Shown here in pieces: positions 54,120-54,314 of a stretch of 64,000 nucleotides of DNA (position 1 is its first letter; every line of letters begins with the position of its first letter). Location: assembly GCA_964016885.1 (NCBI GenBank), contig OZ024750.1:44206001-44270000 (forward strand). Direction: 5' to 3'. Made by a program: the position numbers and the translations under genes. A model generated the notes under the pieces. It made no database searches. It saw only the letters and a program-made list of their open reading frames with translations, and was not told the origin of the DNA. The stretch is from Eledone cirrhosa. Its lineage: Eukaryota.

Positions 54120-54120
<1 letters not shown>

Positions 54121-54314
54121 CGAAAGAAATGTGGTAAGGAACCAGGTGGACCATGACGCACCAAAGTACTCAATACTTAGGGTAGTAGAGTGGGTAATAG
54201 GAACGAGTAGGACCCCGACGGCTGAGCTCAAGCCGTTTCGACGGCTAATTTTTAGTCTAGAATTAGCCGTCGAAACGGCTTGAGCTCAGCCGTCGGGGTC
54301 CTTCTCGTTCCTAT
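54120..54314 (-). mobile_element. Family A element (near-perfect palindrome)
   Basis: Arms share a private variant (GGAACGAG) and are centred on AATTTTTAGTCTAGAATT. Confidence 0.8.

Follow-up and report, generated by a model that had tools for sequence, protein, structure and literature searches.

For Penelope-like elements (PLEs), inverted truncated copies, tails, (TA)n targets, hammerhead ribozymes in the pseudo-long terminal repeats (pLTRs) and a ribozyme core with a U3-A8 pair have already been published. For head-to-head Penelope junctions, self-priming with an antisense template had been suggested as the cause (PMC3846280), and PMC4209133 stated that there was no in vivo evidence for PLE hammerheads. 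In the present work, a stretch of 64,000 nucleotides of the Eledone cirrhosa genome (assembly GCA_964016885.1, contig OZ024750.1, positions 44,206,001 to 44,270,000 of the forward strand; below, the window) was analyzed with a focus on a short palindrome at 54120-54314, one copy of a repeat that is referred to as family A. Judged from its sequence, family A is a set of head-to-head pairs of short ends of a GIY-YIG PLE with Hydra-clade motifs, set in (TA)n.

Palindrome structure and abundance

All arm positions were counted from the predicted cut after GUC. The initial annotation described the plus-strand arm at 54120-54314 as a stem II strand, GAAA, stem III, GTC and a stem I strand; this layout was found as stated, and the reading of the arm as the 3' half of a hammerhead was upheld. 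All five copies that it named (265, 1987, 43079, 49836 and 54120) were recovered using blastn with E values of 1e-35 to 1e-100. CTGANGA was missing in all family A copies of the window, including two further pieces at 55766-55884 and 61150-61211, and the arm end TTCCTAT followed by (TA)n was seen at 54314. Two generalizations did not hold. At least five sequence subfamilies were distinguished where two had been proposed, and the symmetry axis, which had been placed always in loop II, fell at 50 distinct centres in 55 palindromes, with the copy at 55766 centred on the cut site. The two arms were unequal, one of them bearing a 79-nt tail (the tail concept for PLE arms is taken from PMC11167929), and the left arm of the copy at 1987 carried an internal deletion.

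A 20-mer of the arm gave 56,675 exact matches in the 3.0 Gb genome, while its reversed control gave none, so that family A cannot be attributed to chance. The same 20-mer was intact in 18 of the 36 family A arms within 204 kb around the window, and the family was estimated at about 110,000 arms or about 55,000 insertions. Here and below, counts among listed matches were made by hand on the first 100 rows, which come almost entirely from the largest contigs. Three family A palindromes in series, with only (TA)n between them, were observed at L015:1225-1900, which is consistent with repeated targeting or local duplication.

Arm pairing and palindrome formation

Pairing of a tailed arm (ending at +99) with a tail-less arm (ending at +20) was found in 54 of 55 short palindromes. 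The tailed arm reached further than its partner in 23 of these pairs, less far in 22 and equally far in 9. Snap-back of the first cDNA on stem II, as proposed in the initial annotation, needs a first arm that reaches at least as far as the second; because the reach goes both ways, neither arm was copied from the other. In 14 further insertions the tailed arm was shortened, several times ending inside the tail, yet the other arm still started at -35 to -42 and thus held sequence that the tailed arm lacked; the converse was seen once. The whole of loop II was present at no centre, and tail-less arms carried an extra G (described below) even where their partner stopped within the tail. A palindromic half-ribozyme master, amplified like a miniature inverted-repeat transposable element (MITE), would have a constant centre and equal terminal inverted repeats, whereas the centres and arms of family A vary as given above. 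The arms of one insertion do usually share subfamily letters, as either scheme would have it, and self-priming has its precedent in the Penelope junctions of PMC3846280. As the main route, however, both snap-back and master are refuted by these counts, their remaining probability being close to nil, and the self-priming account of PMC3846280 is not supported by family A. The initial view that each palindrome was made per insertion, during reverse transcription, was sustained.

Longer arms were compared in the same manner. Among the first 100 listed places with a hammerhead 5' half, 48 fell in 24 head-to-head pairs, and one pair was tail-to-tail. For 20 further long arms, a long partner was found in six cases, a partner reaching about -78 and -90 in two, an inverted block without an arm in two and no partner within 6.8 kb in ten; in none of the 20 did the partner end at -35 to -45. 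Long arms thus pair with long arms, whereas pairs of a long with a short arm would predominate if each arm stalled on its own; the stop is therefore read as a property of the template.

Both arms are best read, by analogy, as cDNAs primed from opposite strands of the target, and likely one RNA was primed twice. Templating by two separate RNAs, one per protein subunit, was given a low probability. In its favour, the subfamily tags of the two arms disagree in a few insertions (L196, L209 and L057), which fits two RNAs or later conversion, and strand displacement, which copying one RNA twice would require, is not needed. Arms that start at the ribozyme cut nevertheless pair with each other, as do long arms; independent RNAs would be expected to yield roughly 14-18% pairs of a cut arm with a loop II arm, and one was seen among about 70 sampled (a rough estimate). 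Moreover, the arms within one insertion differed by 2.7 of 46 nt, as against 6.1 between insertions.

Arm starts and the putative transcription start in loop II

Arm starts were determined at the 100 exact places that come first on contig C1, and likewise in the 204 kb around the window, which together gave 161 arms, or 158 after three sister-family arms were dropped. Of these, 120 started at -35 to -45 and 128 at -31 to -47; the others were located at -48 to -53 (7 arms), at -54 to -95 (1), beyond (16) and before -31 (6). Two of the seven, L128 and L129, in fact run on, the reference set having been compiled without their subfamily. In the outside runs X1 and X4, contig depth stepped up about 19-fold at the same place and dropped after the tail; these are contigs of unrecorded kind, whose depth is not copy number and cannot show starts or ends.

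Of 100 arms listed from the 6,219 matches that start at A(-41), 84 had G and 16 had A as the preceding base, and G:A was 9:2 in local loci. As a control, arms starting at -40 (7,862 matches) were preceded by G in 17 of 100 listed. Where the extra G could not be read from the partner arm, it stood behind (TA)n, the tail or inserted letters; at several centres both arms had an extra base. A(-41) lies in T(T/C)AGT(C/T) (TYAGTY), and the same motif stands at -41 in a sister family whose loop II is otherwise different; it fits the initiator consensus. A candidate downstream promoter element at +28 to +32 fitted its consensus poorly and was not used. In work on L1, an untemplated 5' G was explained as the reverse-transcribed cap (PMC9341517). 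As the extra G is specific to A(-41) and such a G marks a copied cap, the capped element RNA likely starts at A(-41), inside hammerhead loop II, and this start within the ribozyme is likely why the stubs hold only its 3' half. The copy at 54118..54314 itself begins 3 nt 5' of A(-41), at -44, and carries no extra G.

It was also considered whether the loop II end is made by a nuclease cut at the tip of an extended stem II hairpin or by a strong stop of the reverse transcriptase (RT). The furthest common start (-44/-45) coincides with the 3' edge of the predicted apical loop, and the starts spread over about 10 nt, as such an end would allow. The specificity of the extra G for A(-41) is not expected of a nuclease cut, which leaves an end without a cap, and an RT stop acting on each arm predicts the long-short pairs that were absent from the 20 arms tested and from the 48 listed places in long-long pairs. 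This origin of the end is therefore regarded as improbable, and a transcription start at A(-41) is preferred.

Whole hammerhead motif in long copies

In long copies the arm is preceded upstream by one strand of stem I, a core of 7 nt and one strand of stem II. A pattern that fixed only the flanks of the 5'-half core gave 3,767 exact matches genome-wide and none in the control, and the core was YTGANAA in 99 of 100 matches listed, with all four bases at position 7. Among 86 arms with a 5' half, drawn from a collection of 376 that was enriched for it by the search patterns used, position 3 was T in 59, C in 25 and G in 2, positions 4-6, 8 and 9 were constant in 83-86, and position 7 was free. 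U3-A8 was accordingly present in 59 of the 86 cores, and the core departs from the literal CUGANGA. This pair is a natural one (PMC3088659) and occurs in Schistosoma PLEs (PMC4209133). The remaining elements of a type I layout were all present: three stems, GAAA, an NUH triplet, G10.1-C11.1 and A15.1-U16.1. The three-way junction appeared in two of three predicted folds. Natural whole motifs are exemplified by L184:2888-3012 (U3-A8), L102 (C3/A8) and L232 (canonical core).

The 5' half of the sister family, as predicted from its 3' half, gave 271 matches (control 0); three stem II pairs were altered on both sides between the two families, and 90.6% of cells were paired across 16 natural copies. 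These comparisons show that long copies carry in their pLTR the whole motif of a predicted type I hammerhead, with the core YTGANAA. Because this core is a U3-A8 variant, a search for CTGANGA overlooks it. In keeping with this, a genome pattern search for CTGANGA with stem II directly behind gave 0 matches, and looser patterns gave 46, of which 30 were inspected and none held CTGANGA in the core position; each of the 30 was the centre of a palindrome, a fusion with other sequence or a variant of the loop. No hammerhead was present among the best 150 of 325 weak Rfam matches on the window. The search part of the rule set out in the initial annotation, by which the lack of a CTGANGA relative would point to an ordinary MITE, would thus mislead, since the ribozyme motif is whole with a variant core, and a need for a partner supplying CUGANGA in trans is not supported, as the parent element has a 5' half of its own.

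The sister family (L220-L234) has the same tail; its core is TTGATAA, but position 8 is G in a few copies. Among 100 of its 271 matches listed, the cores TTGAGGA (3), TTGATGA (4) and canonical CTGAGGA (1) were found; these G8 cores are possibly steps between C3-G8 and U3-A8, or later mutations. At L223:1407-1531 an apparent chimera joins a sister-family 5' half to family A loop II and 3' half. In L031, L049, L058, L034, L042 and L048, all picked by the search pattern, a family A arm stands directly behind the hammerhead 5' half of other families.

Copies that end at the ribozyme cut

Palindromes with flush arms starting at the cut site gave 96 exact matches genome-wide. When up to 12 centre letters were allowed, 772 strand matches were obtained (control 42), and the corresponding pattern for the subfamily of the 54120 copy gave 155 (control 0). 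The first 100 rows of each of these two lists correspond to 59 loci, with two unrelated-looking rows kept in n; both arms started exactly after GUC in 32/59 and 34/59 (66/118). One to nine untemplated letters stood between the arm ends in 47 of these 66 loci (22 + 25). Such insertions speak for the joining of two ends rather than deletion of a hairpin, and the fact that both arms end together at the cut points to the end of a template rather than to a stall at stem III. A tailed arm was paired with a tail-less one in all 20 cut-site copies inspected, 17 of which had been picked from rows with insertions. The class comprises about 300 exact-pattern loci, or 0.5-1% of insertions. As a gauge of possibly weaker cleavage in the C3/A8 subfamily, its cut-site matches (155, versus 772 for the other tags) were compared and came out about 1.6-fold lower by rough scaling, a figure blurred by unequal patterns and mixed masters. 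Cut-site stubs are likely fossils of hammerhead self-cleavage in vivo. At L090:1640-1800, a direct repeat of a cut-site-plus-tail segment, from a different subfamily, was observed behind a long copy.

Two additions to this scheme, which would act beside it and not in its place, were assigned a rather low probability. A 5' half from the 3' pLTR of the same or another RNA might cut the half ribozyme at the RNA 5' end, a modified form of the trans cleavage suggested in the initial annotation, or short copies might be transcribed and remobilized like short interspersed elements. Full-length RNA would begin with the 3' half and finish with the whole motif (the layout of L184, below), and PLE hammerheads have been proposed to fold as dimers (PMC4209133). 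On the other hand, the same product results from reading through a whole pLTR, and long copies share most of the subfamily tags seen in short ones.

Parent element

Tracing of longer arms upstream led through a 3' untranslated region to a GIY-YIG frame. One full copy, L184, opens with a truncated copy in inverted orientation that ends in the tail; a direct copy, also truncated, supplies the pLTR and is followed by an open reading frame (ORF) of 717 aa and a second pLTR without a tail, all set in (TA)n; L123 is built similarly. The features of endonuclease-positive (EN+) PLEs were accordingly found, namely a partial-tandem pLTR and an inverted 5'-truncated copy (L184, L123) and a one-sided tail (also in 54/55 palindromes). 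The single ORF has the RT motif YRDD and a YIG motif, as expected for an RT with a C-terminal GIY-YIG domain. Pfam matches to GIY-YIG on ORF fragments were weak and below the cut-off (E 0.006-0.07), there was no such match on the whole 717-aa protein, and a Protein Data Bank sequence search with the ORF gave 0 matches; Atlas look-alikes of the ORF at 0.96-0.99 include GIY-YIG and RVT_1 clusters. The ORF product (P0001) has the Hydra-clade motifs, with a CxCx5C linker, DKT, and CxxC and CxH around the EN domain, and the target is likewise (TA)n. Hydra-clade elements are described as having an RWK motif, a length generally below 3 kb and a canonical hammerhead (PMC8557442), whereas the present element reads RWR, measures about 3.1 kb per unit in L184 and has the U3-A8 core variant.

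Proposed mechanism

Capped RNA would start at A(-41), so that the RNA 5' end would hold half a ribozyme. By analogy with an Anolis element in vitro, the element protein would nick both (TA)n strands and prime cDNA at two internal sites, +99 and +20, of one RNA. Both cDNAs would then run off the RNA 5' end, often adding a base opposite the cap, and the joining of their ends, in which a few letters may be lost or inserted, would leave palindromes whose centres vary. With a longer read-through RNA as template both arms would be long, and with a hammerhead-cut RNA both would start at the cut. This mechanism as a whole, including the head-to-head pairing of the stubs and the half hammerhead that begins at the loop II start at -41, is considered probable on the basis of the sequence comparisons.

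Besides the differing tags and the strand displacement mentioned above, several points weigh against it. The sampling of listed rows is narrow, and exact patterns favour young copies. AATT/ATTT letters common to both sides of a junction blur the reach by up to 4 nt. Starts at -40 are as common as those at -41, and for about half of the 84 extra Gs the partner arm is a possible source as well. Some arms do extend to -44/-45, where a minor second start is weak (G in 18 of 100 listed). For the ribozyme, C3 stands opposite A8 as a mismatch in 25 of 86 cores, and in a mutational scan of another hammerhead only the swap from C-G to G-C was active at the 3-8 pair (PMC9901934). The double changes in stem II amount to about one event per pair, between two families; the fold was no more stable than shuffled sequences (z -0.42, -0.96 and -1.92); and an Rfam search of the whole motif gave no match.

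Features of the window

Table 1. Family A features of the window, with the 54120 copy first
Feature	Position	Strand	Basis or remark
Tail-bearing arm (T), pLTR piece -34 to +99	54118..54250	-	Same sequence precedes ORF in full copy L184
79-nt tail between putative reverse-transcription starts +20 and +99	54118..54196	-	One arm only in 54/55 palindromes
Hammerhead half on tailed arm	54212..54250	-	C17 at 54217
Tail-less arm (S), pLTR piece -44 to +20	54251..54314	+	Sequence reading, arm alignment
Initiator-like motif in loop II, putative transcription start A 54254 (-41)	54252..54258	+	Untemplated G genome-wide
3' half of type I hammerhead	54260..54299	+	Pairs with 5' half in long copies
Stem II 3' strand	54260-54271	+	
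GAAA	54272-54275	+	
Stem III	54275-54293	+	
GTC	54292-54294	+	Predicted cut 54294/54295; stem I strand from 54295
Right-hand (TA)n of the target	54315..54386	.	Left (TA)n runs up to 54117
Palindrome	263..457	.	T arm on -, S arm on +
Palindrome, other subfamily	1985..2165	.	T arm shortened/internally deleted, S arm from -40
Solo 20-nt S piece	43035..43054	+	Starts at cut site (or within 2 nt)
Palindrome	43079..43274	.	T arm on +, begins G + A(-41)
Palindrome, AAAT subfamily	49834..50020	.	Right end approximate
Palindrome, cut-site class	55766..55884	.	Both arms from first base after GUC, centre 55864/55865
Tail-only fragment	61150..61211	-	

Other head-to-head palindromes, with whole canonical CTGANGA hammerhead-like motifs on both arms and centres of variable length, were observed in the window at 580-840 (cores 725 + and 590 -) and 44283 +, and in L203, L204, L207, L208 and L211; these are likely other PLE families formed in the same way. 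Directly to the right of the 54120 copy, (TA)n holds a palindrome of another kind (54420-54535), whose minus strand reads CTGAAGA ... GAAAC. Canonical minimal hammerhead motifs of another family (core, 4-bp stem II and GAAAC) were located at 58023 +, 45189 - and 58552 -.

Significance

The start site inside the ribozyme, the rule of one arm per site and the cut-site copies were searched for in open-access text, and no description was found there. We give about even chances to the full claim that a PLE mRNA starts inside its own hammerhead, so that its 5' end alone cannot self-cleave; that the positions of the cap, of both RT starts and of ribozyme cleavage are recorded to the single base in fossil cDNA pairs numbering in the tens of thousands; that a single RNA is primed two times, from the two strands of the target; and that the first in vivo trace of cutting by a metazoan PLE hammerhead is thereby provided. 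If true, a twice-primed RNA would explain the head-to-head repeats and one-sided tail of PLEs in general. The inverted one-tailed insertion of PLEs and in vivo hammerhead cutting are questions raised in PMC8557442, PMC3846280, PMC4209133 and PMC11167929, for which family A offers rules that can be counted in a genome (each start site used by one arm, pairing of arms of like class, the cap G and ends at the cut), and the same read-out could be applied to any PLE-rich genome. A hammerhead family of great abundance escapes searches based on CTGANGA, and its stubs are then mistaken for hairpin MITEs.

Comparison with known systems

Hydra-clade PLEs such as Hydra-1_Obim (PMC8557442) share with the family A parent the single ORF for RT and GIY-YIG, the linker and EN motifs, (TA)n targets, the pLTR, the inverted 5'-truncated copy and the one-sided tail, and the N-terminal protein sequence of Hydra-1_Obim given in the supplement looks similar by eye. 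Hydra-1_Obim is a different family, with a canonical ctgaagag core and a short loop II, whereas the parent of family A has YTGANAA, a long loop II with a putative start site and, by estimate, about 55,000 short paired insertions.

The non-LTR (long terminal repeat) retrozymes (bioRxiv 10.64898/2026.07.22.740005) are likewise non-coding pieces derived from PLEs with a type I hammerhead. They are described as head-to-tail tandems with a whole ribozyme per unit, in contrast to the head-to-head half motifs of family A. The Penelope element of Drosophila virilis has an internal promoter with an initiator inside the pLTR (PMC2377424), as proposed here for the parent element; an intron begins 46 bp after that start, and its 3' end abuts helix I (PMC4209133). 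The D. virilis start lies upstream of the ribozyme, whereas that of the family A parent would lie inside loop II.

Published PLE hammerheads (PMC4209133, PMC3088659) are also of type I and located in the pLTR, with a U3-A8 core in Schistosoma Cercyon, and pairs on opposite strands 100-700 bp apart were noted there, as in family A. Family A differs from them in its long stem III and stem II, in that most copies hold only the 3' half, and in having copies that end exactly at the cut. For the Anolis Poseidon element in vitro (PMC11167929), both strands of AT-rich DNA were nicked and extended, as proposed for family A, and two internal reverse-transcription starts likewise define the tail. In that system no rule pairing strand with start site was reported and no reads were found at the ribozyme cut, whereas in family A the two sites were used one each in 54 of 55 insertions and ends at the cut site are seen in the DNA.
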